Below, piece by piece: positions 20,171 to 48,216 of a stretch of DNA of 64,000 bases. Each line of letters begins with the position of its first letter. Within the stretch, counting starts at the first letter, position 1. The stretch lies in the NCBI GenBank assembly GCA_965198065.1, contig CBDAON010000004.1, positions 1,568,001 to 1,632,000 on the forward strand. The letters run 5' to 3'. A program made the translations under genes and the position numbers. The notes below the pieces were generated by a model. That model saw nothing but the letters and a program-made list of their open reading frames with translations. It was not told where the DNA came from and searched no databases. Source of the stretch: Longimicrobiales bacterium. Its GTDB lineage: Bacteria; Gemmatimonadota; Gemmatimonadetes; Longimicrobiales; Gaopeijiaceae.

Positions 20171-20180
20171 GCTGACCGGG

Positions 20181-20546: not shown

Positions 20547-20549
20547 GAG

Positions 20550-31437: not shown

Positions 31438-31450
31438 GTGAGCTCCCCTC

Positions 31451-32077: not shown

Positions 32078-32088
32078 CGTCCGTCTCC

Positions 32089-33867
32089 TCAGCGGGCGGG
32101 GTGGTGGGCGGGGGTGGGGACCTCGGCGCCGCCGGGTTCCCATTGTGGGGTGAAGTCCTCGGGGGCCCCGGGGACGCTGTACTCGTGCGGTCCACGATAG
32201 ACCCTCGGGATCTCCCGGAAGTTGCCGTGCGGAGGCGGCGATGGGGCGGACCACTCGAGGGTGGTCGCCTTCCACGGATTCTCATCCGCCTTCTTCCCCC
32301 ACCGGATCGAGTAGAGGAAGTTCACCATGAAGATCATCTGGAACGCGAAGAGCGCGAACGCCGAGTACGAGATAAAGGTGTTCAGGGGCTGGAATTGCTG
32401 GAGGAACGCGTACTGGTTCGGGTCGTAGAGCCGGCGCATCATCCCCTGAAGGCCGAGCTCGTGCATGGGGAAGAAGACCAGGTTGTAGAACACGAACGTG
32501 CCCCAGAAGTGGATCTTGCCCCACAGATCGTTCATAAGAGTTCCGAACATCTTCGGGTACCAGTAGATGATCCCCGCGAAGATCGCGAAGAGGCTCCCCC
32601 CGAAGAGCACGTAGTGGAGGTGGGCCACGATGAAGTAGGTGTCGTGGATCAGGATGTCCACCGGTGTCGCGGCCATGAAGACGCCTGAGAGGCCGCCGAT
32701 GATGAAGAGCGCCACGAAGGCCACCGCGTGGAGGAAGGGCACGTGGAAGACGATGTTCCCCTTCCAGAGCGTCCCCAGCCAGTTGAACACCTTGATGGCC
32801 GATGGGACCGCGATCACGATCGTCGTGAACATGAAGGTGGTGCCGAGCATCGGGTTCATCCCGCTCATGAACATGTGGTGGCCCCACACGATCCATCCGA
32901 GGAACGCGATCGAACAGAGTGCGAGCACCATCGCGTGGTATCCGAAGATCGGCTTCCGAGCGCCGTTCGAGATGACTTCCGAGACGATCCCCATGCCCGG
33001 CAGAATGAGGATGTAGACCTCGGGATGCCCGAAGAACCAGAAGAGGTGCTGCCAGAGTAGCGGCTCACCCTGGTTTGCCGGGAGGAAGAACGTCGTCCCC
33101 ACCGCGTGGTCGAAGAACAGCATGATGATCGCCCCTGCCAGGATCGGCATGGCCAGGAGCGCGAGGATCGCCGTGATGAAGAGCGCCCAGACGCTGAGTG
33201 GGAGCCGGAACCAGGTCAGCCCCGGCGCCCGCATGTTGATCACGGTCGTGATGTAGTTCACGGCTCCCGTGATGGACGAGAAGCCCAGGATGAAGAGGGA
33301 GAGGAGCCAGAGCCGCTGGCCCCAATAAACCCCCGTAAAATCGCCGTCGGCCGAGAGCGGAGCGTAAGCCGTCCATCCCGAACCCGCGGCTCCACCCACA
33401 GTGAAGAAGCTCGCGAGCATCAGGAAACCAGAGGGTACCGCGAGCCAGAACGAGAGCATGTTCAGCCTGGGGAAGGCCATGTCTGGGGCCCCGATCTGAA
33501 GCGGGATCAGGAGATTCCCGAAGACCCCCACGAGGAGCGGCATGATCGCGAAGAAGATCATGAACGTGCCGTGCATGGTGAGCAGGGAGTTGTAGAACTC
33601 GGGTAGGATGATCCCCCCCGGTGCCATCGTTTCCGGGAGGACCGTCCCTCCCGGCATGGGCTGTCCCGGAAAGCCCAGCTGCCACCTCATCATCAGGGCC
33701 ATGATCCCGCCCAAGAGCATGAAGATCAGGCTCATGAACAGAAACTGCTTCCCGATCGTCTTGTGGTCCGTCGAGAAGATGTACTTCCGGATGAACGGGA
33801 TCTCCTCGTGGTGCTCCTCGGCATAGGGGAGGAGGTCGTAATCCGTTCTCGTCGCCGTCACGCTCAT
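32089..33867 (-). CDS. coxA: Cytochrome c oxidase subunit I, A1 type
   Basis: MHGT, WFFGHPEVY, WGHHMF, HDTYFIVAHLHY, GMMRR. Confidence 0.96.
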   Translation of the reverse strand: MSVTATRTDYDLLPYAEEHHEEIPFIRKYIFSTDHKTIGKQFLFMSLIFMLLGGIMALMMRWQLGFPGQPMPGGTVLPETMAPGGIILPEFYNSLLTMHGTFMIFFAIMPLLVGVFGNLLIPLQIGAPDMAFPRLNMLSFWLAVPSGFLMLASFFTVGGAAGSGWTAYAPLSADGDFTGVYWGQRLWLLSLFILGFSSITGAVNYITTVINMRAPGLTWFRLPLSVWALFITAILALLAMPILAGAIIMLFFDHAVGTTFFLPANQGEPLLWQHLFWFFGHPEVYILILPGMGIVSEVISNGARKPIFGYHAMVLALCSIAFLGWIVWGHHMFMSGMNPMLGTTFMFTTIVIAVPSAIKVFNWLGTLWKGNIVFHVPFLHAVAFVALFIIGGLSGVFMAATPVDILIHDTYFIVAHLHYVLFGGSLFAIFAGIIYWYPKMFGTLMNDLWGKIHFWGTFVFYNLVFFPMHELGLQGMMRRLYDPNQYAFLQQFQPLNTFISYSAFALFAFQMIFMVNFLYSIRWGKKADENPWKATTLEWSAPSPPPHGNFREIPRVYRGPHEYSVPGAPEDFTPQWEPGGAEVPTPAHHPAR

Positions 33868-33898
33868 TTCCGCGCCCTCGTGGGTTAAGGCATGCTGG

Positions 33899-34648
33899 TC
33901 AATTGTCCGCCCCGGTTCCGCCGCTCTGGCTGGCCGCACCACCGTTCCCTCCTGCGGCGGCCAGATTCTGGGCTCCTGGGGCGGCTCGCGTCGCGATCTG
34001 CTCAGCCTCCCACGCCTCGAACTCGGCCTGGGTCTGCACGATGACCGTGCCGTCCATCGTGTAATGACCGAACCCGCAGAGTTCGGCGCACCCCAGCGTA
34101 TACTCTCCGGTGGTCGTCACCTCGAACCAGATCGGGATCGTCCGCCCGGGAATCGCGTCCTGCTTGATGCGAAACGGGTACACGAAGAAGGAGTGGAGCA
34201 CGTCCTCGGACTCGAGGTGGATCACCACCGGTCGGTTCACCGGTATGTTCAGGCGGTTCAGGAGCGTGAAGTCATCGGCCGTGCGGAGCTGGCCGTCCGC
34301 GCCCGGATAAGCTGCCTCCCACTCGAACTGACGCGCCGTCAGGACGATCTCGTAGCCGTTCGTGGGGAAGGCGCTCGGGTCCTTGAGTCTTTCCCACACG
34401 CCTTTGCTCATGAAGGCCAGCCCGATCACGATCACGGAGGGCACGACGGTCCAGATCACCTCGGCCTTCGTGCTCCCGTGAGTGTATTCGGCCTTCTGAC
34501 CTTCTCTCGCCCGGTACCGGAACAGGAAGTAGACCAGGAGGACCTCGGTGAGGACGAACACCGCGCCCGTGACGATCAGGATGGCGTAATAGAGGCGGTC
34601 GATGTCCGCGCCGTAAGTCGACACGCTCTCGGGGAGCAACCAGTTCAT
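33899..34648 (-). CDS. coxB: Cytochrome c oxidase subunit II (CuA, no fused cytochrome c)
   Basis: EVIWT, DVLHSF, KQDAIPG, CAELCGFGHYTM. Confidence 0.95.
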   Translation of the reverse strand: MNWLLPESVSTYGADIDRLYYAILIVTGAVFVLTEVLLVYFLFRYRAREGQKAEYTHGSTKAEVIWTVVPSVIVIGLAFMSKGVWERLKDPSAFPTNGYEIVLTARQFEWEAAYPGADGQLRTADDFTLLNRLNIPVNRPVVIHLESEDVLHSFFVYPFRIKQDAIPGRTIPIWFEVTTTGEYTLGCAELCGFGHYTMDGTVIVQTQAEFEAWEAEQIATRAAPGAQNLAAAGGNGGAASQSGGTGADN

Positions 34649-34698: not shown

Positions 34699-35556
34699 TC
34701 AAAAACCTGCGGCGCTCATGGCGACCGGCCCGTGGTCGTGCGGATCGAGCGGCTCCCCTAGCGGAACGACCGCGTTCGCGATCATCCCCTCGTTGAACGT
34801 GAACGTGACCTCAGCCGTCTGCCCGGTCGTCACGGTAACCGTCTGCTCCTGGGTCCCGAGCTGCGAGTGCCAGGCCTCGATTACGTACTCACCCGGCGGG
34901 AGATCTCTCAGATCGAAGGTACCCCCGGCGTCCGAGGCCGCGTGATACGGGTGCGAAGTTACCCCGACGAACGCGTACATCCACCCGTGCACGTCGCACT
35001 CGATCGGAATCATGATCTCGGGAGAGGCGAGCGTTCGATTCATCGTCGGGACCGCCCCTGGCATCCCGAAGTTGAAGGGCCGGTTCGTGGAGGGCGACCC
35101 GCTGACGTTGTGGAGCACGCCGTCCGAGTTACGGAACGTGAGAGTCTGGTCCGCTTGCACGCCGACGACGTGAGGGATGTATTGGCAGCCGTCCTGGTTG
35201 ATCTCGACCGCGGCGCCCGGCACGGGGAAGGTCATGCCCTCGAGCCCCTCCCTCACGTAGATGAAGACGTCGGCCAGGTGCCCGTCTGCGACCTTGAAGT
35301 CCTCGGTCGTGGGGGGCGTCGGGTGCTTGGCCGCACACGCCTCCTCCGAGGATACGTCGATCGGGGAGTTGGCGGGTGCCGTTCCCTCGAACATAACTAT
35401 CCCGCTCACGTGTCCGGCCGTTGCCACGTCGAAGGGCATCTCCGCCGGAGCGGCCGCGGCGCCGCCGCCACCGGAGTCTCCCCCTCCGCATCCCACGGCC
35501 GCGACCGTGAGAACCGCGGGTGCCAGGGCCTTGAACAGCCTCTGCTTCTTTCTCAT
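34699..35556 (-). CDS. Lipoprotein with cupredoxin-like copper site and carboxypeptidase-regulatory-like beta-sandwich
   Basis: AVGC lipobox; NQDGCQYIPHV, LHNV, CDVHGWM (C-x2-H-x2-M); DLPPGEYVIEAWH. Confidence 0.7.
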   Translation of the reverse strand: MRKKQRLFKALAPAVLTVAAVGCGGGDSGGGGAAAAPAEMPFDVATAGHVSGIVMFEGTAPANSPIDVSSEEACAAKHPTPPTTEDFKVADGHLADVFIYVREGLEGMTFPVPGAAVEINQDGCQYIPHVVGVQADQTLTFRNSDGVLHNVSGSPSTNRPFNFGMPGAVPTMNRTLASPEIMIPIECDVHGWMYAFVGVTSHPYHAASDAGGTFDLRDLPPGEYVIEAWHSQLGTQEQTVTVTTGQTAEVTFTFNEGMIANAVVPLGEPLDPHDHGPVAMSAAGF

Positions 35557-35559
35557 GGT

Positions 35560-37221
35560 CTATCCCTCCGGAGTGAGTTCAAGTTCAGGATCAAGTCGAA
35601 GCGCCTGCGACCGCAGGGGCCGCTTCCACCCCCCCTCCTGCTCCCGCTTCTTCGCGCGCCCAACGGCGAGCAGCCCGAGGCCTCCGGTGAGCAGGAAGGC
35701 GACGAACGGCGCGATATAGGTGGAAGGAGGCGTCTCCTCCTCGAGGGTGAGGAAGTACCAGGTGCTGATGGCACCTCGCGTTCCGTCTTCACCACTGTCT
35801 CCGTCCCAGGCGAAGAACGCGACCGGGACCGGTCGGCCGAGCTCGAAACGCAGCTCGCCCTCCCCATCGGTCGGCTCGAACGCGCGGTGGAACACGACTT
35901 GCCACTGTCCGTCTATCCACTGGGCGTCGGAGGTGAGGCCCCCCGCCCCCATCGTCTGGATGTCGCCGATCCCCCGGGCGGTCGCCCGCTGGGCCCCCGC
36001 CTGGTCGCCCTGCCACTGCCAGAGATGGACCGGCGTGCGCGAATCCCCCATAAGAAAGTACGGCCTATCCATCGCTTCCGGGATCTCGACCGGGAGCTGC
36101 ACCGTGAGCCGGTCGGGCCGCGCCCCGGGCTCCCGCCCCGTTCCCTGCGGCTGGAGGGAGGCGAGCACGCGGGGCTGCCAGAGCTCGAGCCACTGGGGAT
36201 CGGGGCTCTGGGAGCGGTCGGTCCAACTCACCCGGATCGCCAGCTCCGCGCTGTCGTGGATGCCCTGGACCCACACGGACCTCACCGCCGGTTCGAACGC
36301 CCGGTCGCCCGTGATGATCTGTCCGACGAGGGGAACGTAGAACGACTCCACGCCGTTCCAGCGCTCGTCCGAGGCCGTTGTCGGAACCCCGGTTCCCTCC
36401 TCGGCGCGCTCGACCACGATGACCTCCCGGACCTCCGGAGGATCCTCGGGAGAGAGGCTGCGCACGTAATGGGCCAGGCTCCACATCTGCTCGTCGGTCA
36501 TGAATCCCGCGTCGAGCAGGTCGGCGAACTGCGGCATCGGGGTCCCGTCGAGCCCGGTGCGGAGCCTCCGAGAGATGTCCTCGACGCTGCCGCCGCCCGT
36601 GAACCGCCAGTTCTGCGTGAGATCGGCCGCGTGAATGGGGTTCTCCCAGTCGTCCTCGAGCTCGGCCGAGCCCGGGCCGTCGCCTCGCCCCGTCTGGCCG
36701 TGGCACTGCCAGCACTCGATCTCGTCGTAGAAGCGGCGTCCCTCCTCGAGCCGCTCCTCAGAGGCGCTCCCCGCGCCGGAGAAGCTGAGCGGAGTGGGAG
36801 CCGGCAGGCTCTCGAACTGCGGATAGAAGCTCTTCACGTACTGGACGAGCGCCTGGCGATCGCTCTCCGGGAGGAGGTCCTCCCACCCGGGCATCGTCGT
36901 GCCCGGCATCCCCAGATTGATCACCTCGAGGATGTCGTCGTCCGTCGGGATGTCGCCACCGGCGGTCGTCCGAATCTGGAAGAGCCCCCGCGTGAAGTCC
37001 CTCGGCCTAGGCAGCATGTACTCGGCGGCCACGCCCATCCCGTCGCCCTGGAGACCATGGCACTGGGAGCACCACTGCTCGTAAACGACCCGACCGGGCT
37101 CGACGTCCTGGGCCTGAGCGGGCGCGGGGACGAGCGTGCCTGCTGCGCCGAGCGTGCTCGTCAGGAGCATTGAAACCATCGCGCCGGTCACTACCGCGGG
37201 GATGCTCGTGGTTGGGCGCAT
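35560..37221 (-). CDS. Diheme cytochrome c fused to an ethylbenzene dehydrogenase gamma-like (DOMON heme b) domain, with C-terminal TM anchor
   Basis: CSQCH, CWQCH, PRPRDFT; PYFLMGD..HLWQW, GQWQVVFHR, PVAFFAWDG; true start 37221 (ATGA overlap). Confidence 0.8.
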   Translation of the reverse strand: MRPTTSIPAVVTGAMVSMLLTSTLGAAGTLVPAPAQAQDVEPGRVVYEQWCSQCHGLQGDGMGVAAEYMLPRPRDFTRGLFQIRTTAGGDIPTDDDILEVINLGMPGTTMPGWEDLLPESDRQALVQYVKSFYPQFESLPAPTPLSFSGAGSASEERLEEGRRFYDEIECWQCHGQTGRGDGPGSAELEDDWENPIHAADLTQNWRFTGGGSVEDISRRLRTGLDGTPMPQFADLLDAGFMTDEQMWSLAHYVRSLSPEDPPEVREVIVVERAEEGTGVPTTASDERWNGVESFYVPLVGQIITGDRAFEPAVRSVWVQGIHDSAELAIRVSWTDRSQSPDPQWLELWQPRVLASLQPQGTGREPGARPDRLTVQLPVEIPEAMDRPYFLMGDSRTPVHLWQWQGDQAGAQRATARGIGDIQTMGAGGLTSDAQWIDGQWQVVFHRAFEPTDGEGELRFELGRPVPVAFFAWDGDSGEDGTRGAISTWYFLTLEEETPPSTYIAPFVAFLLTGGLGLLAVGRAKKREQEGGWKRPLRSQALRLDPELELTPEG

Positions 37222-38006
37222 CACTCGAGCTCCTCCCAGGTCCGAGGTGCAACCCCGGCCTGCTCGTAGAGGAAGATGGTGACGGCCCAGATCTCTTCCG
37301 CGGTCAGGAACTCCTCCCACGCCGGCATCGCGGAGTTCCAGGGCGCCCCTTCGCTGGGAAGGCCGGGTCCCCCCTTCGCGATTCGCCAGAAGACAAAGCT
37401 CTCGGTGAGCTGCGCGATAGTGCCGCCGCCCCGGAGGGTAAGAGGCTGGGGATTGAACCCCAGGGCGAAGTGCCCGAGCCCGTCCAGGTAGTCTCCATGG
37501 CACGCGAGGCAGTTCTGGTAGTAGACCCTCTTTCCGACCTCGAAGGCCTCCTCCACCCGTCCCTCTTCCCGGAGCGGGTTTTCGAGCCCGTTCAGGACCA
37601 TCGTCTCGCCCCGGAACGTGATCTGCGTTGGGTTCGCGGGATGGATGGAGCGGAGCGAGGGCGGGGCCGCGAACTTCGGGCGCACGGTGTCGTAGGTGAC
37701 GACCGCGACCAGCGCCGGGACGAGCACCAGGAAAGTGGCCCTCAGGATCCGGCGCTCGGGCTTCACGAGGAGGCTCCAGATCGGACCCTGGAATGTCCTC
37801 CATCTCTCCTCGTCGGAGCTGACCCACACCAGGAGCCCCACCAGCACGGTCACCGTATACTGGAACACGACGCTCGACGGAACCGGCGCGCTGGCAACAC
37901 CCAGGACGGGCGGGACATAGGGGATCCCGAAGCGGATCACGACGAAAGCCAGGACGACGACGAGCACCGACTGCCAGAATGGGTGCCCGAGGAAGTGTTT
38001 CATCAC
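37221..38006 (-). CDS. Membrane-anchored monoheme cytochrome c
   Basis: About three N-terminal TM segments; CLACH; SAMPAW distal Met. Confidence 0.85.
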   Translation of the reverse strand: MMKHFLGHPFWQSVLVVVLAFVVIRFGIPYVPPVLGVASAPVPSSVVFQYTVTVLVGLLVWVSSDEERWRTFQGPIWSLLVKPERRILRATFLVLVPALVAVVTYDTVRPKFAAPPSLRSIHPANPTQITFRGETMVLNGLENPLREEGRVEEAFEVGKRVYYQNCLACHGDYLDGLGHFALGFNPQPLTLRGGGTIAQLTESFVFWRIAKGGPGLPSEGAPWNSAMPAWEEFLTAEEIWAVTIFLYEQAGVAPRTWEELE

Positions 38007-38788
38007 TGCATTCCCGAGAGGTAGCCGACCACCGCCTCGAGCTGGGTGGCGGACAGGCGATCCCCGAAATTGGGCGGCATCATCATCACGAGTTCCTCGT
38101 ACCCTGCCGACGCCTCCGCCTGCGGATCCAGGATCGCGCGGCGGATCTCCTCGGGCGTGAGCCGGGCGCCCACCTGGGTCAGGGGGGGGCCCACCGGAGT
38201 GCCCTCACCTCCGATCTGATGGCACTGGAAGCAGAGGGTCAGGGTGATCACGGCGGGATCGGTGGAAGCGATCTCGAACCCGCCGGCCGGAGTGGCCCCT
38301 TCGGGCGCTGCCTCGGGCGGGATGTCCGCCCCTGTGACCGTGACCTCGCCGCCGTTCGACTCCAGGTACGCCACGATGGACCAGATCTGGGCCTGGCTCA
38401 TTGTGCGGTCTAGCGCCAGCATGATGGGCGGGAAGTCGTCCACGAGGTGATCGGTGGGCGCCACAAGGGATTGATGAAGGTATTCCTTGCAGGACAGGCC
38501 TGAGATACGGGTGCCGCAGCGTGCGCCGATCGTGCCCTGGCCCTCGTAGTCAGAGAGCAGGTTCGGCGCGCGCGCACCCGGAGACTCGGCGTGGCAGGCG
38601 GTGCATCCTCCGGCGCCGGTGAAGAGCGCCTCTCCGGCCGAGACGAGCTCCTCTGGGGAGATGTCGGCCCCGAAGGCCAGCACTTCCGGCACCTCGGACT
38701 GGACCTGTGGAATGATGTTGGCCACCAGCGTATAGAACCCGATGGTGGCGAGCACCACCCCACCGACCTTCAGATCTATCGAACCCAT
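38003..38788 (-). CDS. Diheme cytochrome c
   Basis: CTACH and CFQCH; PIM and MMPP distal Met motifs. Confidence 0.88.
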   Translation of the reverse strand: MGSIDLKVGGVVLATIGFYTLVANIIPQVQSEVPEVLAFGADISPEELVSAGEALFTGAGGCTACHAESPGARAPNLLSDYEGQGTIGARCGTRISGLSCKEYLHQSLVAPTDHLVDDFPPIMLALDRTMSQAQIWSIVAYLESNGGEVTVTGADIPPEAAPEGATPAGGFEIASTDPAVITLTLCFQCHQIGGEGTPVGPPLTQVGARLTPEEIRRAILDPQAEASAGYEELVMMMPPNFGDRLSATQLEAVVGYLSGMQ

Positions 38789-38802: not shown

Positions 38803-40629
38803 TCAGTGGCCCGGGGCGGGTTGGAGCCCCGTGTCCAGGTCTCGTCCACGCCCCTCTTCAGGGCCGCCAGCCATCGCCGGACGGGGCGCCGGCGTCGCCT
38901 CACGGGCCTTCACGGGGGCGATCTCCGGCTTCGCGATCATCCCCCCGATCCAGAACACGAACGCGATCATGGCGAGGAACAGGAGCACGCACCCGCTGAT
39001 GACCTGCGCTGCGTACCCGAGGGCTGGCGTGGCCGCATAGTCGCTAGTGTCGCGCAAGACCTCGTAGACGTGCCAGTGCTGCCGGATCCCGCTTCTCGCG
39101 AATCCCATGAGGCCCATGAGCCACGTGAAGGTCACGACCAGCACGAAGAGGGCGTATTGCGACCGCGGGGGCATCTGCCCCCAGCGGATCTCGCCCCGCG
39201 ACTGGGCGCGGCGCGCGATCAGGATGTCGAGCGTGAGGACGGCGAAGATCGTGAAGATGACGATGAGCACCTGGTAGACCGAGAAGCCGATCCGCACGAT
39301 CGCCGGGACGAAGTAGCCCCAGATCCCGTAGAACAGGACCACGAGTGCCGCCACCCCGATCACGATCCCCTGGGTGATCGTCCCCGTCTTTGCCCACGAC
39401 ACGGCGGGAATCTTGTTCGCGCGACGGTAGAGGAGGAACGACAGGAACGTGGTCAGGATCATCAGGTTCACAGCCGTGTTCTTCGCGCTCATGACCCCGA
39501 GGGCGCCGAGGAAGGGGTGGAACGTGCCGCCCATGGCGGTCAGCTCCTCCCGGTCGGCAATCATCGAATGGGGCGTGGCCCACACGATCACGCCAATCAC
39601 GAGAACGAGGAGCATCCATTTCGTGTAGGGCGCGAACCGCTCGCCCCCGGGGATCCGTCCCAGGCCCACCCAGAGATAGTAGTTCCCAGCCAGGAAGAGG
39701 ACGCCGATGAGGAAGGCCTGCACGATCCAGAGCCAGCTCATGAAGCCGCCCATCATCGTGACGCCCAGCTGCTGGTTGAACTCGTAGATCTCACGGCCCA
39801 GCCAGTACCCGGCGAAGGGGAGGAGAAGGAAGGTCCCGATCGCGATGAAGTTCCCGACGTAGCCCATCCAGTCGTAGTGCGCCCGCTCCTCCTCGGACTC
39901 GGACTTGAGGAAGCGGTACGCGGCGTACGCGGCCACGATCGACCCGCCGAACACCACGTTCGCGATGAGCCGGTGGATGTTGATGGGCATCCAGGTGGCG
40001 TTCGCGAAGGCGCTCCAGAACTGGACCGTCTCGGGAGCGACGTCCGGCGTGAGCTCCCCGGGAGGGCTCATCATGAACGTGATCCACGCGTTCGCGATGA
40101 ACATCACGACCGTTCCCCAGACGTTCAGGAGCAGCCCCAGCCCCCAGTGGACGAGCTTCGCGCGTCCCTTCTTCCAGTGCTCCCACCCGTAGTAGTACGT
40201 GTAGAGCGTCGCCGACTCGAGGAAGAAGAGCGCCGCGTAGACCCACATGGAAACCCGGAACACGGAGCTCAGGTAGCTCCAGAGCTGCGGGTACTGCGTC
40301 GTGAGGAGGAAGAGGAAGAGCCCCCCGAGGAGCGCCGTGGCGCTGTATGCCACGAGGAGGAGGCGCGTGAACTCCTTTGCGAGGCCGTCGTAGCGCTTGT
40401 CGGTCCCGAAAATCCCGATCGCCTCCGCGATCACGGCGAACATAGGCACGCCGAGCACGAAGGCGGCGAACATGAGGTGTACCTGGGCCACGATCCACAC
40501 GGCGGCCCGGCTCCCGATGAGCGGCACGTCGGCCCCGTACGCGGGCGGGGCATAGCCCTGAGCGAAGAGCGGGATCGCCACGGCGGTCGCGGCGAGTGCC
40601 AGGAGCCCGGGCAGGATCCTCCGCTTCAT
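38803..40629 (-). CDS. Cytochrome bd-like oxidase subunit I (CydA-like, no Q-loop)
   Basis: HLMFAAFVLG, FFLES, IANAW..FMMSP, IHRLIAN, MGFARSGIRQHW; 13 or more hydrophobic segments. Confidence 0.8.
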   Translation of the reverse strand: MKRRILPGLLALAATAVAIPLFAQGYAPPAYGADVPLIGSRAAVWIVAQVHLMFAAFVLGVPMFAVIAEAIGIFGTDKRYDGLAKEFTRLLLVAYSATALLGGLFLFLLTTQYPQLWSYLSSVFRVSMWVYAALFFLESATLYTYYYGWEHWKKGRAKLVHWGLGLLLNVWGTVVMFIANAWITFMMSPPGELTPDVAPETVQFWSAFANATWMPINIHRLIANVVFGGSIVAAYAAYRFLKSESEEERAHYDWMGYVGNFIAIGTFLLLPFAGYWLGREIYEFNQQLGVTMMGGFMSWLWIVQAFLIGVLFLAGNYYLWVGLGRIPGGERFAPYTKWMLLVLVIGVIVWATPHSMIADREELTAMGGTFHPFLGALGVMSAKNTAVNLMILTTFLSFLLYRRANKIPAVSWAKTGTITQGIVIGVAALVVLFYGIWGYFVPAIVRIGFSVYQVLIVIFTIFAVLTLDILIARRAQSRGEIRWGQMPPRSQYALFVLVVTFTWLMGLMGFARSGIRQHWHVYEVLRDTSDYAATPALGYAAQVISGCVLLFLAMIAFVFWIGGMIAKPEIAPVKAREATPAPRPAMAGGPEEGRGRDLDTGLQPAPGH

Positions 40630-42044
40630 CCCTTCCCTCCGTTTCGAAGGAAGAAAGGAAGACGGCGGGAGAAATCCACGGGCATTCGCCGGCGAACTTC
40701 CGCGATGAGATCGAGATCGACGGTCTCGTGTCCCTCCCGGCGCGCGAACTCCTCCACCCGGTTCACTACGACTCCACGTACGAAGCTCGGGATCCGGTCG
40801 ATGCGGGCCTCAGCCTCGGCACTCCAGCGGAGCGTGCGCACGGCCTTCGCGCTGTAAGTCACGGCTGGCCGGGGCCGAACGACCGGCCGCCCGCCGGGCG
40901 GATCGTACGCGCAGGACTCGTCCGGGCCGAGGAGGTCGCCTGTTTCCGCGTGCGCGCGCGCCCTGCAGCCCCCGCACACCTCCCGGAACTCACAGCGACC
41001 GCACTTGCCGCCGAGCGTTCCGGCGCGAAGCGAGCGAAAGACGGGAGAGCCATCCCAGATCTCGCGGAAGGACGACTCCCTGAGATCGCCCGCGACGACC
41101 GGCGTATACGGGCACGGCGTCACCTTCCCTTCGGGCGTGATGCGGCAGTAGTGGAGGCCGCAGGGGCAGCGGGTCGCGTAATTCAGGAGCGGTGAGTCGG
41201 GATCGCCCAGGGAGACATGGCGCATCAGCTGTGGTTGGCACTTCGACCGGACCATCATCCGCCCGCGATAATCGGCCTCGAGGGTCATCAGCTCTCGAAG
41301 GACGTCTTCGTTCTCCGCCGCTGAGAGGCCCTCCATCTGCTTCCCCCGGCCCGTAGGCACGAGGAAATACACGTTGAACGAGACGGCTCCACGGTCCGCG
41401 GCCCACGCCGCGAGGCGGACCAACTCGCGCCGGTTTCCGCGGGTGAGGCTCGTCTGGATCACGAAGTCCAGCTCGTGCTCGACGAGGCGATCCACGGCGG
41501 CCAGCGTGTCCGTCAGGGCGCCCTTCCCGTGGCGGAAGCGGTCGTGGTACTCGGGGTCGAGCGAGTCCACGCTCACGGCGACGCCTGTCACTCCGGCTGC
41601 CTTGAGCGACCCGATCCGCGCGGACGTCAGCCGGGTGCCGTTCGTGCCGACCACCACGGTGGCCCCCCGCTCCGCCGCGTGCTCGGCGACCTCCTCCAGA
41701 TCCTCGCGGAGGAGCGGCTCTCCCCCCGACAGGATCAGCATGGGGCTCGGGTTCACCTCGAGGAGCTCGTCCAGGACTCGGTGACACTCGTCCGTCGACA
41801 GCTCGCCGTCCGCCGCGTGCCAGGAACCGGCCGAGATGTAGCAGTGGGCGCACGCGAGGTTACAACGCTTAGTGAGGTTCCACGCCACCACGTGTGGAAG
41901 GAACGTCTCCGCTTCCGAGCCGAGCGAGGCGAAGCGCTCGGCAAGGGCCCGGCGGCCCCACGGAGCCGGCCGGGGCGTCAGGAGGGCGCCGAGCCCCTCA
42001 CCGGAGCCCGCCGGTAGAGAGGTTCGATCGAGGGAAGAGCTCAC
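40626..42044 (-). CDS. Radical SAM/SPASM protein (AhbD/NirJ-like) with C-terminal PCP_red-like domain
   Basis: CNLACAHC, SGGEP, CPCG..VTPC..CGRC..CGGCRARA..C; tail WSAEAEARIDRIPSFVRG..VEEFAR. Confidence 0.85.
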   Translation of the reverse strand: MSSSLDRTSLPAGSGEGLGALLTPRPAPWGRRALAERFASLGSEAETFLPHVVAWNLTKRCNLACAHCYISAGSWHAADGELSTDECHRVLDELLEVNPSPMLILSGGEPLLREDLEEVAEHAAERGATVVVGTNGTRLTSARIGSLKAAGVTGVAVSVDSLDPEYHDRFRHGKGALTDTLAAVDRLVEHELDFVIQTSLTRGNRRELVRLAAWAADRGAVSFNVYFLVPTGRGKQMEGLSAAENEDVLRELMTLEADYRGRMMVRSKCQPQLMRHVSLGDPDSPLLNYATRCPCGLHYCRITPEGKVTPCPYTPVVAGDLRESSFREIWDGSPVFRSLRAGTLGGKCGRCEFREVCGGCRARAHAETGDLLGPDESCAYDPPGGRPVVRPRPAVTYSAKAVRTLRWSAEAEARIDRIPSFVRGVVVNRVEEFARREGHETVDLDLIAEVRRRMPVDFSRRLPFFLRNGGKG

Positions 42045-44071
42045 TCGTCGGCGTCCTCCGCCCCCGACATGAACCGTTCGACCGCGGCACGGGCGTCCTC
42101 CGGGGAGACCATCTTCAGGTCCACCGGGCACTTCTCGACCTGCTTCTCCACGTCCCGGATAGGGCAGCGGGTGATCCCCTGCGCCTTCGCCTCCTCGATG
42201 AACTTTCTCATCTCGGGGGTGAGCCCGTCCACGCCCTCGGCTGCCGCCCTGATCTGCTTGGTCTGGAGCTCACGGAACATCACGAGCATGGTGTCCATAT
42301 CGAACTCGTCGGCCTCGATCATGGCCTGTTTGTTCTCATCCATGATCGGGGTCGTGACCTGCCACACCGCGTGCTCCTTCGCGAAGCGCTCCACCGTGTT
42401 TCGAGCGAGAGGGCGGGCGACGAGCGGGACGGCGCGGAGCCGCTCGAACGCCTCCTCCGTCCAGACGATCGGGTCGTGGGCGTTCCGCTCGCGGGTCTGG
42501 AGGTGTCCCGTGTAGGGGCACGTCACCTCGATCGTGGGAGCTTCCGGTACCGGGTCCGCGTCGCTCCCCTGGACCACCGTGCGCCGCATCGCCTCCTCGG
42601 CCTTCACCTCGGCCAGCGCCAGTTCTTCGGCCGTCCCGATTCCCATGATGAGCTGCATGTGGGTGGGGAGGAGCTTCTGGATCGCTTCGTCAAGCCGCTC
42701 ACCCGTAACGGTCGGAAGCAGATCCATCGCGTGCGCCCCGTTCCCGTCCGAGCGGGCCGTCCGGCCCCCGTAATTCTCGAGGACGAACTCCTCCACCGCT
42801 TTTCGCGCGATGCCCAGCGCAAACGGCGGCACCCTCAGGATCCGGACTTCGGCGTCGGGCGCCCACTCGAGCCCCTTCTCGCCGTCCTCCTCGATCCACG
42901 GGATGTCGTCGGGGCGCACGTCGGTCGTCCCGACCAGCAGAACGTTCGTGGGCGCGAGCCGGCAGAGGTTTTCGGCCTGCGAGCCCATGTCCGTGCCCTC
43001 CACGCGGTGGCCGCCGTGACGGGCGACGATCAGGAGCGAGGGGTCGATCTCCTCAGCCCACTGCAAGATGCACTGGAAGGGCTTTCCGATGAGGATCTGG
43101 GTCTCCAGCTCCACGTCTGGGAACTCGCTCGCCATGATCTCGGCGCGCTTCAGGTTTGCCTGGCAGAGCTTCAGGAGCCCCTTGTCGATTATGTTGTTGT
43201 GGAGCTCCTCCTGCTCCTCGAACTTGAAGACCTTCGCGGCCTGCGCGGAGAGGACGTCCTTGATGTTGCCGAAGACGACGTGGTGATACTCCACGTCGAA
43301 GGCAGAGCAGGCGTACAGCTTTGCGCCGAACTCCCGGGCCAGCTCGAGCGCGACCCGCATCGCCTTGTAGGAATAGGACGACCCGTCCACGCAGATCATC
43401 CAGCGACCCCCCTCGAGCGGGCGGTCATTCCGGACGATCAGCGTGTCCTTCTCGACCCTCCGGATCACGCGCGAGACCACGCCGCCTAGCTGGGAGAAGG
43501 GCTGTCGCCCGATCCCGTGGGCTCCGATGCAGACGAGGTCGTAACGCCGGCCGCTCTCCCCAGCGAGCTTCTCGTCCTGGGATTCGTCCTCCGCCACGAT
43601 GCGGCCGTCCTCGTCGAGCCGGACGTCGCTTCGCACGGTTGAGCCCCCGTCGTACTTGTCCGCGATGTTGGGGTCGAAGCCGATGAGGCTCGGAAGCCGG
43701 CCCGCGCCTCGATCGGCCTCGCGGATGATCTCCTCGAAGTTGATCCCCTCGAGTAGCTGACGGGTGAGGGGAACGCCGGACTCCTGGCAGTACCGCTCGG
43801 TCTGATCCAGGAAAGAGTCCGAGATGAGCTGGAGGCCCTTCTCGATCAGCTTGTCGTGGACCTTTCTCTGCCGCTTGATCTCTTCGGGAGTCTGAAACTG
43901 CGCGGGGAGGCCGGTTTCGAGCTGCCGGAACCGAACGTCGTGGAGACGGGCGGCGTAGACGTGGTTCCCGGTGATACGGCCCTCGGATCTCTTGGTGATC
44001 TCGACGGCTCTCTGTACGGCCCACTGAGAATGGGACGAGTTATCGACCGGAACGAAGATCTCGCGGTACAT
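42041..44071 (-). CDS. Tandem universal stress protein domains plus two PCP_red-like domains
   Basis: MYREIFVPVDNS, IGAHG..GGV, CVDGS, ARHGG..GSQAE; WAPDAEVRILRVPPFALG and WTEEAFERLRAVPLVARP. Confidence 0.8.
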   Translation of the reverse strand: MYREIFVPVDNSSHSQWAVQRAVEITKRSEGRITGNHVYAARLHDVRFRQLETGLPAQFQTPEEIKRQRKVHDKLIEKGLQLISDSFLDQTERYCQESGVPLTRQLLEGINFEEIIREADRGAGRLPSLIGFDPNIADKYDGGSTVRSDVRLDEDGRIVAEDESQDEKLAGESGRRYDLVCIGAHGIGRQPFSQLGGVVSRVIRRVEKDTLIVRNDRPLEGGRWMICVDGSSYSYKAMRVALELAREFGAKLYACSAFDVEYHHVVFGNIKDVLSAQAAKVFKFEEQEELHNNIIDKGLLKLCQANLKRAEIMASEFPDVELETQILIGKPFQCILQWAEEIDPSLLIVARHGGHRVEGTDMGSQAENLCRLAPTNVLLVGTTDVRPDDIPWIEEDGEKGLEWAPDAEVRILRVPPFALGIARKAVEEFVLENYGGRTARSDGNGAHAMDLLPTVTGERLDEAIQKLLPTHMQLIMGIGTAEELALAEVKAEEAMRRTVVQGSDADPVPEAPTIEVTCPYTGHLQTRERNAHDPIVWTEEAFERLRAVPLVARPLARNTVERFAKEHAVWQVTTPIMDENKQAMIEADEFDMDTMLVMFRELQTKQIRAAAEGVDGLTPEMRKFIEEAKAQGITRCPIRDVEKQVEKCPVDLKMVSPEDARAAVERFMSGAEDADE

Positions 44072-44384
44072 TACGAACCTCTGACTCGGAGCCGCAGTTT
44101 CCTTCGTTCCCCCGGTCACACCACCACCAGTGATCCCACTCCGCGGATCGGTCGGGTCTATGGCCCGCACTCGCCACCGGCTCTCCGTCGGGGAGCCAAC
44201 CCACGAGCCCTTCGGGGCCGCGCTCTGGGACGGCTCACTTGTACGAGATTCTCTGCGAAACCGAGACCGATAGCGGGAGGACCCGGTCAGGCACAGTCGG
44301 ACACGGGAGCCGAACCCCGACTGCGCCCGAGGATAGCCCGTCCGTTCGGACGATCCGCGCCCTCCAAGACCGCACCGCGTGGCC

Positions 44385-44413
44385 AGTATATCTGGCCCCT
44401 ATATGGCTGTCAA
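44385..44413 (-). promoter_or_regulatory. Near-consensus sigma70 promoter with palindrome over the -10
   Basis: Minus strand TTGACA-17 bp-TATACT; inverted repeat GGCCAG-TATAT-CTGGCC at 44381-44397. Confidence 0.75.
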
Positions 44414-44450
44414 CTCGCTTTCGTGACGCATCCGTGCGGGGAGTGAAACG

Positions 44451-45170
44451 CTATCGGAGAGCAGCGCTGATCCGTTTGAGGAGGGCGCTCGACAGGGCCG
44501 TCGAAGCCAGGAGAAAGAAGACCAGAACCGCTGCGGCCGGTAGCATGTCCCAGCCCCCCGGGGGTGCAACCCCCTGCGCTCCCGCCAGGAAGACCTCGTG
44601 AAGGGGACGGTAGGGAAGAATCATCTCGATCCGGGCCCCGAGGCTGCCTGGAGCCGGCGTTCGGAAGACTCCGGATCCGTGGAGCAGGAAGAGGGAGAGG
44701 ACCGCGGCGAGAAGGGCGCCCTCGGCCATCGAGGCCGCGAAGGCCGCGACCCAGAGCCCGACGAGGTTTGCGGTGAGGAGGGCGAGGAACAGGGCCGGGA
44801 CGACGGCCGTCCATACCGTGACCCCGGCGCGGCCCGCTCCGAGTACGAGCGCCATGGCCGGGAGGAGCTGGAGGAGATCGAGGGCGGTTCCCGCCATCAT
44901 GCGCTCGACCACGAACCTCGGCTCCGGGAAGCCGCTTAGGATGATTCTCCGAAGTGGTCCACCGTCGGCCTCCCGGAGGAGCGGGATCGTGGAACCGAAC
45001 GTTCCAAAGAGGACGAAGAGCACCGCGTAGGTCGCGGACGCGTGGTACGCCGGCGCGCCCCCGAGCGCGAGCGGCGCGACGAGTAGCACGGGCGTCGCGA
45101 CGTTGAACGCCATGAGGCGCCTGCGCCGGAGCGCGATCCGCCACTCGACCGCGAAGACGTCGAGGCTCAC
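44451..45170 (-). CDS. ABC-2 type exporter permease
   Basis: About six TM segments; coupled to the ABC ATPase gene. Confidence 0.7.
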   Translation of the reverse strand: MSLDVFAVEWRIALRRRRLMAFNVATPVLLVAPLALGGAPAYHASATYAVLFVLFGTFGSTIPLLREADGGPLRRIILSGFPEPRFVVERMMAGTALDLLQLLPAMALVLGAGRAGVTVWTAVVPALFLALLTANLVGLWVAAFAASMAEGALLAAVLSLFLLHGSGVFRTPAPGSLGARIEMILPYRPLHEVFLAGAQGVAPPGGWDMLPAAAVLVFFLLASTALSSALLKRISAALR

Positions 45171-46201
45171 GGCCGTTCCGGAGACGGGAGATCGGCCGAG
45201 AGCTCGAGCGGCTCTCCCGTGACAGCGTGGAACAGGTCGCCCAGCTCGGGCTCGCGAACCCGGACCCGCGTGATCGAGACGCCCTTTGCGAGAAGCCGGG
45301 TAAGGAGCTCGGGGAGCGGAGTGGATCCGCGGGTGCTCTGAACGACGATGGCCTCCCCTCGGCCATCCGACGACACCGCCCGCCGGACCGACTCCGCCCC
45401 CGGCACCGTCTCCAGCTCCCAGGTCGAGCCTGTGCGCTCACGGTCGTGGTCCGGCCGGAGGGTGCCGACGAGCTCGATCTCGATCGTGGTCTTCCCATCG
45501 AGTCGATCGAGGAGCTCGGCGAGCGGGGCGTCGATCGCGATCGATCCCCGATGGAGGAAGAGGATGCGATGAGCCCACCGGGAGGCTGCCCGGGTATCGT
45601 TCGTCGCAATCACGGCGGCGCCTCCGGCGGCTGCGCGCTCGCGGACGGCTTCCTCGAGCGCACGGGTCCCCGCGGGGTCGAGCCCGACCGTGGGTTCGTC
45701 CAGGAGCAGGAGAGGGGGTCGGAAGGCCAGGGTCTCCACGAGAAGGAGCTTCCGCCGCATCCCGAACGAGAGCTCGCTCACGGGCACGTCTCCGACCTCC
45801 TCCAGGCCGAAGGCCGCGAAGAGCTCCGAGACGCAGGCCCCTCCACGGCCATCCCGGCCGCCCCGGAGCCCCGTGAAGAAGCGGACGCTCTCGCGCGCCG
45901 TGAGGTGTGCGAAATGGCGGGGGCTGTCGGGTGCGTACCCAATCCCGGGTCGGAGCCGGCGAACGGACCCGCGGACGCGCTTGCTCAGGAGCGAAAGCGA
46001 GCCCACGGTCGGGCGGAGATCGGTCGCCAGGAGCCTGAGCAGCGTGCTCTTTCCGGAGCCGTTCGGGCCGATGGCCGTCACGATCTCACCCGGACCCACG
46101 GAGAAGCTCACGGGACCGAGACCGGTCCGCCCCGACCGGTACCGGTATCCCATCCCCTCCGCGAGGATCAGAGGTCCCAGCCGGCCCGTGCCAGCATCCA
46201 C
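45167..46201 (-). CDS. ABC transporter ATP-binding protein
   Basis: GPNGSGKST, LSFGMRRK, LLLDEPTVGLDP; start approximate. Confidence 0.88.
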   Translation of the reverse strand: MDAGTGRLGPLILAEGMGYRYRSGRTGLGPVSFSVGPGEIVTAIGPNGSGKSTLLRLLATDLRPTVGSLSLLSKRVRGSVRRLRPGIGYAPDSPRHFAHLTARESVRFFTGLRGGRDGRGGACVSELFAAFGLEEVGDVPVSELSFGMRRKLLLVETLAFRPPLLLLDEPTVGLDPAGTRALEEAVRERAAAGGAAVIATNDTRAASRWAHRILFLHRGSIAIDAPLAELLDRLDGKTTIEIELVGTLRPDHDRERTGSTWELETVPGAESVRRAVSSDGRGEAIVVQSTRGSTPLPELLTRLLAKGVSITRVRVREPELGDLFHAVTGEPLELSADLPSPERP

Positions 46202-46581
46202 AGGTTTCCGACCACGATGACCATCGCGGTGACATAGAAAGAGGACGGAAGCTCCGAGCCGGGGAGTGGGAAGAACGCCCCCTGGATGAGGGCGGGGAGG
46301 CGAAGCCCGTGAAGGGCCCAGATGACCCTCGCCAGCCACGGGTTCTGCCAGCTCCAGAGCCCCCACGTCACGCTGGCGAGGATCGCCGTGCCGAGGAGGA
46401 GCCAGAGCCACACCGGTCCGCGCTCCGCCGGGAGGACTCCAGCCCGAGACATGGCCCAGACCGAGAAGAGATAGAGGAGGCCTACGTGCAGGTAGACCAT
46501 CGCGGCCTGCCGGAACTTCCGGCTCCGTGAGGCGGCCTCGGGGGTCCCCTCGAGCCCGGGCACCGAGGCGTCGGGAGTCAT
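46168..46581 (-). CDS. Four-TM membrane protein
   Basis: KFRQAAMVYLHVGLLY..MLARAGWDL; ATG 46581 coupled to the upstream stop. Confidence 0.7.
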   Translation of the reverse strand: MTPDASVPGLEGTPEAASRSRKFRQAAMVYLHVGLLYLFSVWAMSRAGVLPAERGPVWLWLLLGTAILASVTWGLWSWQNPWLARVIWALHGLRLPALIQGAFFPLPGSELPSSFYVTAMVIVVGNLWMLARAGWDL

Positions 46582-47027
46582 CACATGCCTTCGAGCCCGA
46601 GCTCCGACCTGGCCGTGTCCATGACCTCGGGGGTCAGAACGCGGATGTCCCGCTCCCGCGCGTAATCCGTGTAGATGCGCTTCACCATCCCGCGAACGAA
46701 ACCGGGAACGCGCTGGAGACGCTCGACCGCTTCGGGGCTCCACTCCACGGGTCCCGGCCCACCTCCTGCCTCGGGCGGCTGAAACGCCGACTCGCTTCCC
46801 GCCTCGAGCGTGCTGCGCGTGACCTCGAGCGGTTGAGCGGGCACCTCGCGTCCCCCGATTCTCACTCCCATCGAGCTCACGAGCTGCGTTTCCATGGGGT
46901 TCGTGAGGAGCGCCATCTCGCGCCGACACTTGCCGCACGAGAAGACCGCCGCGAGCGTGCCGTCGCCCGGGATCTGGCGCTCGACGAACTCCATGACCTG
47001 ATCGCACTCGACGCAGAGGAACTTCAT
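46581..47027 (-). CDS. CxxC..CxxC metal ribbon plus PCP_red-like domain protein
   Basis: MKFLCVECD..CGKC; WSPEAVERLQRVPGFVRGMVK..YARE..TPEVMD. Confidence 0.8.
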   Translation of the reverse strand: MKFLCVECDQVMEFVERQIPGDGTLAAVFSCGKCRREMALLTNPMETQLVSSMGVRIGGREVPAQPLEVTRSTLEAGSESAFQPPEAGGGPGPVEWSPEAVERLQRVPGFVRGMVKRIYTDYARERDIRVLTPEVMDTARSELGLEGM

Positions 47028-47968
47028 GGGACCTCTTTCGGCTTCGACGAGCGACCTTCCCCGGACGCGCTCGACGGGCGGCTCGCGCCGGCCTGCTCGA
47101 CGCGCTCTGCAAGCGCGCGGAAGGCTCTGCCCACGGTCCCATCGGGGACCTCGAGGACAATGGGTTGCCCCCGGTCCGTGCTCTCGGCCAGGCGGGGGTC
47201 GAAGGGGATTTGCCCCCACACGGCCACCCCGCTCTCCGAGGAGAGGCGCTCAATCCCGTCACCCCGGAAGATCGGCTCCGATCGACCGCAACCGGGACAG
47301 ACGTACTCGGTCATGTTGGCTACGAGCCCGATCTGGGGCACGCCAGCCTCGCGGATCAGACGGATGGACCGCGAAACGACGGCGCGGGACATCTCCGAGG
47401 GTGTCGAAACCACGAGGACCGTCGGCAGATCGGGCACGAGCTCCAGGAGCCTCCGGATCTTGTCTGTTCCGGGCGGGACGTCCACTAGGAGGAAGTCTGG
47501 GGATCCCCACGCCACGTCGCCGAGAAACTCGCGGAGGGCCGTCGCCTCCATGCTGCTCTGCCAGAGGAAGGTATCGGAGGCGGGCTCCTTCCATCTGAGC
47601 GGTGCGTCCTGGGCATCCTGGAGGAGCTCCATCGAGATGACGCGCACACCTCCGGCTCCGGAGACGGGGACGACCCCCCCCTCGCCGTCCTCTAGGCTTC
47701 GGCCGGTAACCCCGAGCATCCTCGCGAGGGACGGTCCGTTCAGGTCGGCGTCCACCACACCCACATGCTGACCGCGGGCCGCGAGCGTCGCGGCGAGGTT
47801 GGCGGTGACGGCGCTCTTCCCGACTCCCCCCTTCCCGCTTGCGACGGCCAGGACCATACCGACGCCGGACAGGCGCTCTGCGAGCCGAGCTCTTTGTTCC
47901 AGGACTTGCTCCAGGAGCTCGGACCCCGTGCCGTGGTCTACCTCGTGATAGGTTCGGAACTTTCTCAC
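47024..47968 (-). CDS. Mrp/NBP35/ApbC Fe-S carrier P-loop ATPase
   Basis: ASGKGGVGKS, DVPPGT, NM..CPGC, IPFDP. Confidence 0.88.
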   Translation of the reverse strand: MRKFRTYHEVDHGTGSELLEQVLEQRARLAERLSGVGMVLAVASGKGGVGKSAVTANLAATLAARGQHVGVVDADLNGPSLARMLGVTGRSLEDGEGGVVPVSGAGGVRVISMELLQDAQDAPLRWKEPASDTFLWQSSMEATALREFLGDVAWGSPDFLLVDVPPGTDKIRRLLELVPDLPTVLVVSTPSEMSRAVVSRSIRLIREAGVPQIGLVANMTEYVCPGCGRSEPIFRGDGIERLSSESGVAVWGQIPFDPRLAESTDRGQPIVLEVPDGTVGRAFRALAERVEQAGASRPSSASGEGRSSKPKEVP

Positions 47969-48216
47969 GGAACAATCTGTTTCCCGTCGGGGTCATGTAC
48001 TTGGATGGCGTCCACCGGGCAACTTCGGCACGCCGCGACGAGTTCGGCGTGCTCGACGGCAGAAGCCCCTGGGCGCAGCACCGCGATTCCTTCTCCATCG
48101 AGCTCGAAGGCCTCCGGGCTCGCCTTGATGCAATCCCCGAACCCAACGCAAATGAGCCGGTCGATACGAATCGTGAGCTCGCCGATCCGCTTCTGCTCGA
48201 AATGGGCCAAGATCAC
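47965..48216 (-). CDS. Ferredoxin (probably [3Fe-4S])
   Basis: CVGFGDC..CPVDAI; AGGAG RBS. Confidence 0.85.
   Translation of the reverse strand: MILAHFEQKRIGELTIRIDRLICVGFGDCIKASPEAFELDGEGIAVLRPGASAVEHAELVAACRSCPVDAIQVHDPDGKQIVP

Follow-up and report, generated by a model that had tools for sequence, protein, structure and literature searches.

Dedicated genes that supply heme, among them CtaAB, CydDC and HemW, act as cofactor kits for oxidases. The same logic is found in the nir heme d1 genes, a set for a special heme that includes NirJ (as set out in passages of PMC7242693). On the side of the oxidases, the OR-N family of the cytochrome bd superfamily is described in the accessible part of 10.1101/2021.01.16.426971, and the TO_1 complex of Nitrospirota, according to the accessible part of 10.1101/2021.11.15.468770, combines a long CydA-like subunit, without CydB, with a pair of c-type cytochromes and a heme b protein of the periplasm. 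Here, we describe a locus in which the two themes meet, located in a window of 64,000 nucleotides (the whole stretch of DNA analysed; contig CBDAON010000004.1, positions 1,568,001 to 1,632,000) from a Longimicrobiales bacterium of the phylum Gemmatimonadota. On the minus strand of this window, the gene for a CydA-like ('bd-like') subunit of the OR-N type (38803..40629) is preceded by a module encoding, among others, a radical S-adenosylmethionine (SAM) enzyme with a SPASM domain (40626..42044), a tandem universal stress protein (USP; 42041..44071) and four copies of the PCP_red domain. This gene set likely makes a special form of heme from the ordinary one and likely passes it to the oxidase, since it is gained and lost together with the oxidase and is kept in genomes where heme synthesis was not found.

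The bd-like subunit, the likely client of the module, matches CydA over the first helices, both by sequence and by fold. As in the OR-N/TO_1 systems, it is longer than CydA, is accompanied by no CydB in the locus and has two cytochromes c and then a heme b protein encoded after it; Nitrospira paralogues match the profile at E < 1e-200, and the same oxidase gene order is found in Nitrospira loci. Unlike these systems, the window copy is single, and its operon also encodes a cupredoxin-like lipoprotein and an A-family oxidase. Its heme pocket also departs from that of canonical CydAB: H51, E138 and H219 are retained, whereas Tyr131 aligns with E101 of G. thermodenitrificans CydA and Ser513 occupies what we take to be the place of a Glu heme ligand (mapped through an RQHW/RQPW match and CydA numbering), so that the equivalents of both Glu99/101 and Glu445/378 are replaced. 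Two extra histidines, H161 and H520, are present, and all four residues (Tyr131, Ser513, H161 and H520) occur in 20/20 aligned OR-N proteins from genomes with the radical SAM gene. In one Rubrobacteraceae CydA-like subunit, from a genome without the enzyme, Glu is found at both the Tyr131 and the Ser513 places, which fits an enzyme product that goes with the altered pocket. The subunit shows 11 hydrophobic peaks in a crude scan and 15 long helices in a structure model, which is of moderate confidence (predicted local distance difference test score, pLDDT, 64) and showed only the expected fold. As a separate observation, two genomes (G125 and G058; L019, L020) carry a second OR-N paralogue, ~50% identical, with its own cytochromes, two cupredoxin-like genes and no adjoining maturation genes.

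A preliminary description of this DNA, made from its letters alone, had proposed a module devoted to the bd-like complex, and its distribution in two phyla bears this out. The phylum sample (301 genomes) and the Nitrospirota sample (151 genomes) contain kin that are not independent, and for this reason no p-value is attached to the counts. PCP_red was found in 103 of the 301 phylum genomes, with at least three copies in 86, and an oxidase orthologue was likewise found in 86; module and oxidase occur together in 85 genomes, each occurs alone in one, and 214 have neither. In Nitrospirota, the histidine-bearing USP and OR-N are both present in 53 genomes and both missing in 95, with two genomes holding only the former and one only the latter. 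Thus, the module does not distribute independently of bd-like genes. Seventeen phylum genomes have one or two PCP_red copies; among the three examined, two contain module pieces at contig breaks (G118 and G178, the latter without an oxidase match) and the third (G101) a BchB. In 18/18 related loci, selected among positive genomes by the length of their contigs and so as to spread over families, the ferredoxin, Mrp, CxxC protein, USP and radical SAM genes of the module precede the oxidase. In three Nitrospirota genomes, oxidase, cytochromes, USP and radical SAM enzyme form one run; in a further set of Nitrospirota loci the oxidase never lay within the flanks retrieved around the module, and the co-occurrence holds even though the genes lie far apart in Nitrospira. 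The module does not follow the aa3 oxidase: aa3 was present in 3/3 module-negative genomes tested, and in one Nitrospira with the module it was not found, so that service to the aa3 oxidase was rejected. A replacement of complex III by the module's complex was also rejected, since ActC-like genes occur in 5/5 genomes, with and without the module. Thus, the cassette very probably serves the OR-N oxidase in one way or another.

The radical SAM enzyme is closest to enzymes of tetrapyrrole metabolism, and its profile scores fall below all cut-offs: 285 of 500 bits for NirJ2 (TIGR04055), 277.7 of 500 for AhbD (TIGR04545) and 256 for TIGR04053. With NirJ it scores 176 of 515 and the locus holds no nir genes, which places it outside the heme d1 pathway. 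Scores for peptide maturases reach at most 150 bits. Like AhbD, NirJ2 and TIGR04053 proteins, it contains the CxxxCxxC motif (C61/65/68) and the full eight-cysteine SPASM set (C269, 293, 311, 348, 351, 357, 360 and 378), all invariant in 19/19 rows, and this pattern agrees with the three clusters of M. barkeri AhbD described in the accessible passages of PMC10452713. Unlike them, it carries a C-terminal PCP_red (40692-40826) and an additional invariant cysteine, Cys295. In trees built on the catalytic core, the module enzymes form one clade (support 98/99) that is sister to AhbD plus TIGR04053 (99/98), as obtained with 36 rows after five long-branch and sixteen redundant rows were dropped from the full set of 57. 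Hence, the enzyme has the cysteine motifs of AhbD and lies outside the AhbD clade.

The genomic background of heme synthesis separates this enzyme further from AhbD. HemE, HemH, a HemY-like gene and ChdC are encoded elsewhere on this genome, and the ChdC family is found in 79/86 oxidase genomes. In Nitrospirota, 34 genomes have an AhbD above the cut-off (true AhbDs score 516-535 bits), and six of them have OR-N and the USP, one with a weak OR-N match. In the five AhbD-and-module genomes examined, the module enzyme is always a separate protein, in three of them within an intact oxidase-cytochromes-USP-radical SAM run. The oxidase is absent from 28 of the 34 AhbD genomes and from 56 ChdC genomes; the enzyme therefore follows the oxidase and not the heme pathway. 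Seven oxidase genomes from six genera lack a ChdC match, and all seven keep an intact module enzyme. HemC was found in 0/7 of them and HemB in 0/7, against 72/73 for HemB in the other oxidase genomes (80/86 searched), a control rate that makes chance loss of heme genes in these drafts unlikely. In five of the seven that were tested, HemH and AhbC were not found, and the URO-D family gave only weak matches in two. As the enzyme is kept with ChdC, with a true AhbD and without a detectable heme pathway, bulk supply of heme b is unlikely to account for it, and it is probably not a bulk AhbD; a plain AhbD for bulk heme b had been named beforehand as the outcome that would undo the proposal. In the phylum as a whole, the ChdC family was not found in 166/301 genomes, and the closed genome G062 has coxA and ActC-like genes without detected HemC, HemH or ChdC, which suggests that heme auxotrophy may be widespread in the phylum. 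In some genomes (G044, G060, G071, G059 and G056), genes for heme synthesis are found in the vicinity of the module, with chdC ~9 kb past the oxidase gene, or hemB or hemC less than ~3 kb from the start of the cassette.

The tandem USP (676 amino acids; Pfam Usp) is the most constant part of the module, with an identity of 66-81% across the class. Its modelled fold matches the tandem USPs Rv2623 and TTHA0350, and it shares ATP-binding motifs with these proteins and with UspE. Unlike them, it is only 14-18% identical to these USPs, contains long helical inserts with paired invariant histidines, and is a single copy that tracks the oxidase. In 85 representatives, which were picked from a listing of 150 because they are distant and span the tandem core, H37, H44 and H72 are each kept in 84/85, H263 and H291 in 85/85, and H355 in 83/85; H44/H72 and H263/H291 form pseudo-symmetric pairs. 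C518, C636 and C648 are invariant in 18 close rows, and the protein has three Cys-Pro motifs, which in our view resemble heme-regulatory motifs. These features lead us to predict that the USP is a heme or metal carrier. Related USP clusters include forms with rubredoxin in Nitrospinota and Pseudomonadota, and a search for shorter homologues returned only fragments. In Rubrobacteraceae, 7/7 genomes with the USP have a CydA-like pair; in the single case retrieved, genes for Rieske and cytochrome b proteins surround it. Rubrobacteraceae that look non-phototrophic also encode a pair of subunits resembling nitrogenase component 1, the second with PCP_red at its end (L120:6490-7938, L121:4587-7336), and a long PCP_red-bearing frame of that size occurs in 6/7 such genomes, G305 being the exception.

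A mechanism can be proposed in which heme b is modified by the radical SAM enzyme, carried by the USP and delivered to the oxidase, a reading to which we give a probability of about 0.5. The AhbD-related enzyme would turn finished heme b into a different heme. An iron porphyrin would be the substrate, given that AhbD, NirJ and their kin act on the propionate side chains of iron tetrapyrroles (for NirJ and relatives, see the accessible text of PMC7242693). Heme b would be the specific choice because cells that lack the pathway would import it, and a remaining propionate would be the likeliest target. The USP would bind substrate or product through its paired histidines (H44/H72 and H263/H291) and let go using ATP, and the altered pocket of the oxidase, with Ser and Tyr for two Glu and with extra His, would take up the new cofactor. 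Mrp, the CxxC protein and the ferredoxin would be accessory, providing iron-sulfur (Fe-S) clusters and electrons. PCP_red could serve as a small domain for interaction or capping, the USP core being a likelier constant partner for it than Mrp.

Several observations weigh against this mechanism. We know of no radical SAM modification of heme at the heme b propionates. The module enzyme was not found in the seven Rubrobacteraceae genomes (best score 57 bits, against 449 and 836 in controls), and these genomes keep the USP and CydA-like genes; the enzyme is thus not needed by every OR-N-like oxidase. The contrast between Glu and Tyr/Ser comes from one Rubrobacteraceae pair, in one lineage, and an OR-type relative functions with b hemes only (passages of 10.1101/2021.01.16.426971). 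An unexplained exception is G050, a draft that is 98% complete and in which the OR-N gene was not found despite a divergent module (~40% identity), which lies among mobile-type genes on a 9.6-kb contig and is split by toxin-antitoxin and Fic-type genes (L027, G050:C4). With all 57 rows, support for the module clade falls to 88/85 and a long-branch NirJ2-like protein stands beside it. The seven genomes without a heme pathway are drafts, 91-97% complete and none closed, in which the genes are 'not found' only, and scavenged coproheme may be the source of substrate there. Other organisms are known to have both ChdC and AhbD, to serve aerobic and anaerobic growth (parts of PMC5746218 and PMC13564367). 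Finally, the USP model is of moderate confidence (mean pLDDT 63) and gave only the expected fold.

The main rival holds that nothing is modified: the radical SAM protein and the USP would bind heme b as it is and load it into the oxidase, much as HemW, a chaperone of radical SAM fold, is reported to insert heme. The retention of the module in genomes without heme synthesis, the co-occurrence and the USP histidines would all be expected, Rubrobacteraceae manage with the USP alone, and the binding of iron porphyrin by AhbD does not depend on its auxiliary clusters (available passages of PMC10452713). Such delivery is nonetheless unlikely, because every radical SAM and SPASM cysteine is invariant, and because a dedicated Mrp and ferredoxin, present in most lineages, would be costly for a chaperone. 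A second possibility retains the catalysis and changes the target: the SPASM enzyme would modify the oxidase itself, for instance by a cross-link at Tyr131 or a histidine, or the cassette would build a non-heme metal site for which the USP histidines carry copper or iron. SPASM enzymes often modify proteins, the best PDB matches of the enzyme are SkfB and PqqE, Tyr131, His161 and His520 are invariant in OR-N, the Nitrospira enzyme has been suggested to hold a copper site (accessible text of PMC8115632), and a CopD/DUF4149-like gene follows the radical SAM gene in Nitrospirota loci. We consider this improbable, given that the enzyme branches with tetrapyrrole enzymes (278-285 bits there, against the much lower scores for peptide maturases) and is cytoplasmic, while the site lies in the membrane.

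About as improbable as the maturation of a protein or metal site is the reading that the enzyme is an oxygen-independent or salvage AhbD, converting home-made or scavenged coproheme to heme b for a respiratory operon used at low oxygen. Its nearest named families are NirJ2 and AhbD, it is sister to AhbD, some genomes have heme genes close to the module, and there are precedents in Haloferax volcanii (PMC5746218, in part) and in bacteria with the coproporphyrin pathway (PMC13564367, in part). The same enzyme is kept beside a true AhbD in five genomes, as well as in the seven with no detectable route to coproheme, and the many AhbD and ChdC genomes without the oxidase speak against such a role as well. 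It is very unlikely that the USP senses stress or oxygen and that the genes are merely co-regulated with the respiratory operon. UspA proteins do rise under low oxygen in Nitrospira marina (passages of PMC8115632), and the Cys-Pro motifs noted above could serve regulation; against this, the co-occurrence persists in Nitrospira, where the genes are far from the oxidase, and the USP is highly conserved across the class. Conversion of heme b by the radical SAM enzyme and its delivery by the USP thus remains our preferred reading.

PCP_red is otherwise familiar as the C-terminal domain of BchB/ChlB in dark-operative protochlorophyllide reductase (DPOR), and the PDB matches of the locus domains are BchB/ChlB C-termini, 2KRU and 2L09. 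The domain of the window is the same, the difference being its fusion partners, namely a radical SAM enzyme, a USP and a cysteine protein. The claim of four copies in three neighbouring genes was confirmed by the Pfam profile (PF08369) and by a motif count. All three proteins pass the gathering cut-off of 32.5 bits (radical SAM enzyme 48.0, CxxC protein 50.8, USP 46.8 over two stretches), and a genome-wide search gave four matches in total, all inside this locus. Copy by copy, the scores are 53.5 bits for both 46608-46742 and 40692-40826, 37.3 for 42329-42463 and 22.6 for 42776-42865. The last, the first copy in the USP, lies below the cut-off on its own because a loop of variable length divides the domain: the match covers model positions 1-30, and the final helix picks up after the loop in the alignment. 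The motif without its last position occurs four times in the 6.1 million residues of the six-frame translation, each time at the locus, and all four occurrences fit the full motif. The genome-wide search found no PCP_red-bearing BchB in this genome, and the Pfam scan found no Oxidored_nitro domain in the locus, which sets it apart from DPOR and chlorophyllide reductase (BchN/BchB plus BchL).

The proposal that PCP_red is a shared docking tag, especially for Mrp, fared less well. Across the genomes examined, the copies range from 1 to 13; 11 of the 13 Nitrospirota genomes first examined have 12, and three other Nitrospirota genomes have one each, on the radical SAM enzyme alone, the USP of one of these carrying none. 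No Mrp was found in five Nitrospirota genomes of this minimal type. Therefore, neither a tag common to several proteins nor docking on Mrp is required, and the core of the module is reduced to the USP and the radical SAM enzyme. Other Nitrospirota loci extend the set (L122:18603-19604, L123:13809-14309, L110:14254-15817, L079:13662-14171), with a four-PCP_red protein, a two-PCP_red protein heading an OR-N operon and the CopD/DUF4149-like membrane gene after the radical SAM gene.

The accessory genes open the module. The single-cluster ferredoxin (47965..48216; Pfam Fer4_15/Fer4_13, 18/18 related loci) has a CxxFxxC...CP pattern in which the second cysteine is replaced, a feature that we take to be typical of 3Fe-4S ferredoxins, and is likely the electron donor or acceptor of the radical SAM enzyme. 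It is followed by an Mrp/ApbC-type P-loop ATPase (47024..47968; 18/18 related loci), which matches ParA/NUBPL (PF10609) with 231 bits, has an invariant deviant Walker A motif (SGKGGVGKS) and keeps C224/C227 in at least 90% of sequences. The protein scores below the ApbC and MrpORP equivalog cut-offs, lacks the N-terminal domain found in the housekeeping copy, and is only 38% identical to that paralogue, which is encoded elsewhere in the genome; it likely loads Fe-S clusters. Next comes the CxxC...CxxC protein (46581..47027; 148 amino acids), whose C-terminus is the PCP_red at 46608-46742. Its four cysteines are invariant in 34/34 aligned sequences, from a family of 4182 homologues, and it is likely a metal or Fe-S scaffold partner of Mrp. 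The two genes travel as a pair across loci and adjoin each other in Nitrospira and Manganitrophaceae as well; a dedicated Mrp paralogue paired in this manner is consistent with Fe-S supply.

Two further elements are optional. A small membrane protein without a Pfam family (46168..46581) occurs in 12/18 loci; it had been called a 4-TM protein, of which the membrane location holds and the number of transmembrane segments is only plausible, as three hydrophobic peaks are clear. The ATP-binding cassette (ABC) exporter of the preliminary description, like its Mrp and ferredoxin, was recovered by Pfam, here as an ABC-2 pair found in 5/18 loci. It comprises a DrrA-like ATPase with an uncertain start (45167..46201) and a permease with ~6 hydrophobic segments in a hydrophobicity scan (44451..45170). 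The membrane protein and the pair were never found together in those loci. As a candidate heme exporter of the CcmAB or CydDC type, the pair was rejected, since it reaches neither family cut-off (CcmA 106.7 of 131.6, CydD 71.7 of 435). In Rubrobacteraceae, a stand-alone PCP_red gene lies head to head with an ABC-2 pair resembling that of the window (L127:5431-7414), and such pairs occur near the USP gene in three loci (L032, L038 and L041).

The order of transcription is thus ferredoxin, Mrp, CxxC-PCP protein, small membrane protein, ABC-2 pair and, after a gap of 380 bp, USP, radical SAM enzyme and bd-like subunit, the stop of the USP overlapping the start of the radical SAM gene and the stop of the latter the start of the oxidase gene. 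A near-consensus sigma-70 promoter-like site (44385..44413, minus strand; TTGACA-17-TATACT, 11/12 matches) lies between the permease and USP genes, which argues for two transcription units; the search returned two sites against 0.4 expected, and a comparable site lies less than 400 bp from the USP start in 6/18 related loci. The gene content and order described earlier for the run directly upstream of the bd-like gene therefore stand, while the single run is probably two transcription units. No conserved FNR/CRP-like box was found upstream of the USP gene, loose matches being present in 4/19. After the bd-like subunit come two membrane-anchored cytochromes, one of c-type (38003..38788) and one monoheme cytochrome c (37221..38006), and a fusion of a diheme cytochrome c with an ethylbenzene-dehydrogenase-type heme b domain, the start of which is uncertain (35560..37170). 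These are followed by a cupredoxin-like lipoprotein with a likely type-1 copper site (H...CxVHGWM; 34699..35556) and, in the same operon, by the coxB, coxA, coxC and coxD genes of an A-family heme-copper oxidase (31162..34648). This coxA is the sole one found in the genome, and a CtaA-like heme A synthase is encoded at 4057-5040, 26 kb from the cox genes.

The oxidase family is already described, and the cassette can be regarded as a cofactor kit for an oxidase, with parts not described before; the discovery of a new heme would make it more than such a kit. Compared with the kits for heme d1 (nir), CtaAB, CydDC and HemW, it shares the logic of dedicated genes for a special heme, but the radical SAM superfamily is the only common component, its ABC pair being neither CcmA nor CydD and not always present. 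Maturation genes are not mentioned in the accessible passages of 10.1101/2021.11.15.468770 and 10.1101/2021.01.16.426971, and no description of the cassette was found in the literature searched, which included passages of PMC12342949, PMC8115632, PMC13474568, PMC12022308 and PMC13297055; subscription papers were thinly covered, and supplements of the OR-N paper may name the genes. The passages of two DPOR-related papers among these (PMC12022308 and PMC13297055) contain nothing on the PCP_red domain.

It is not settled how oxygen is reduced by Nitrospira and by related organisms that oxidise nitrite or manganese; OR-N is the proposed answer, its activity being only proposed in the passages available. 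A two-gene core of USP and radical SAM enzyme that tracks OR-N in two phyla names the genes to co-express, the phylum of the window offers the whole set in one compact operon, and the module predicts an unusual heme that could be found by liquid chromatography-mass spectrometry. If true, this would be the first concrete role for a USP subfamily and for PCP_red outside photosynthesis. More tentatively, OR-N oxidases in general, including the suspected terminal oxidase of Nitrospira, might depend on a heme not yet described, which a new radical SAM subfamily would make from heme b and an ATP-driven USP heme chaperone would deliver, with PCP_red as a general domain for tetrapyrrole hand-off shared with chlorophyll synthesis; some Rubrobacteraceae might feed the carrier from a nitrogenase-like ring reductase.

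Two features of the window lie outside this system. A PilB/GspE-like ATPase is present in minus-strand pieces (18827-28409; MshEN part 27789-28397, ATPase part 19310-20071), separated by plus-strand genes that include a 1925-amino-acid large polyvalent protein with ddrB-ParB, zeta-toxin-like and LPD38 domains and that are probably a mobile insertion. At 51241-51329, mutY is broken by an exact 28-bp duplication that flanks a 33-bp unique insert, giving a period of 61 bp. CRISPR-like arrays of the same period are found in the genome at C4:1501850-1503272 and from C4:1749917, and two further isolated duplications with this period at C4:740642 and C4:1860216. Judged by its letters, the mutY duplication looks like an off-target spacer integration, with a read artefact as the alternative.

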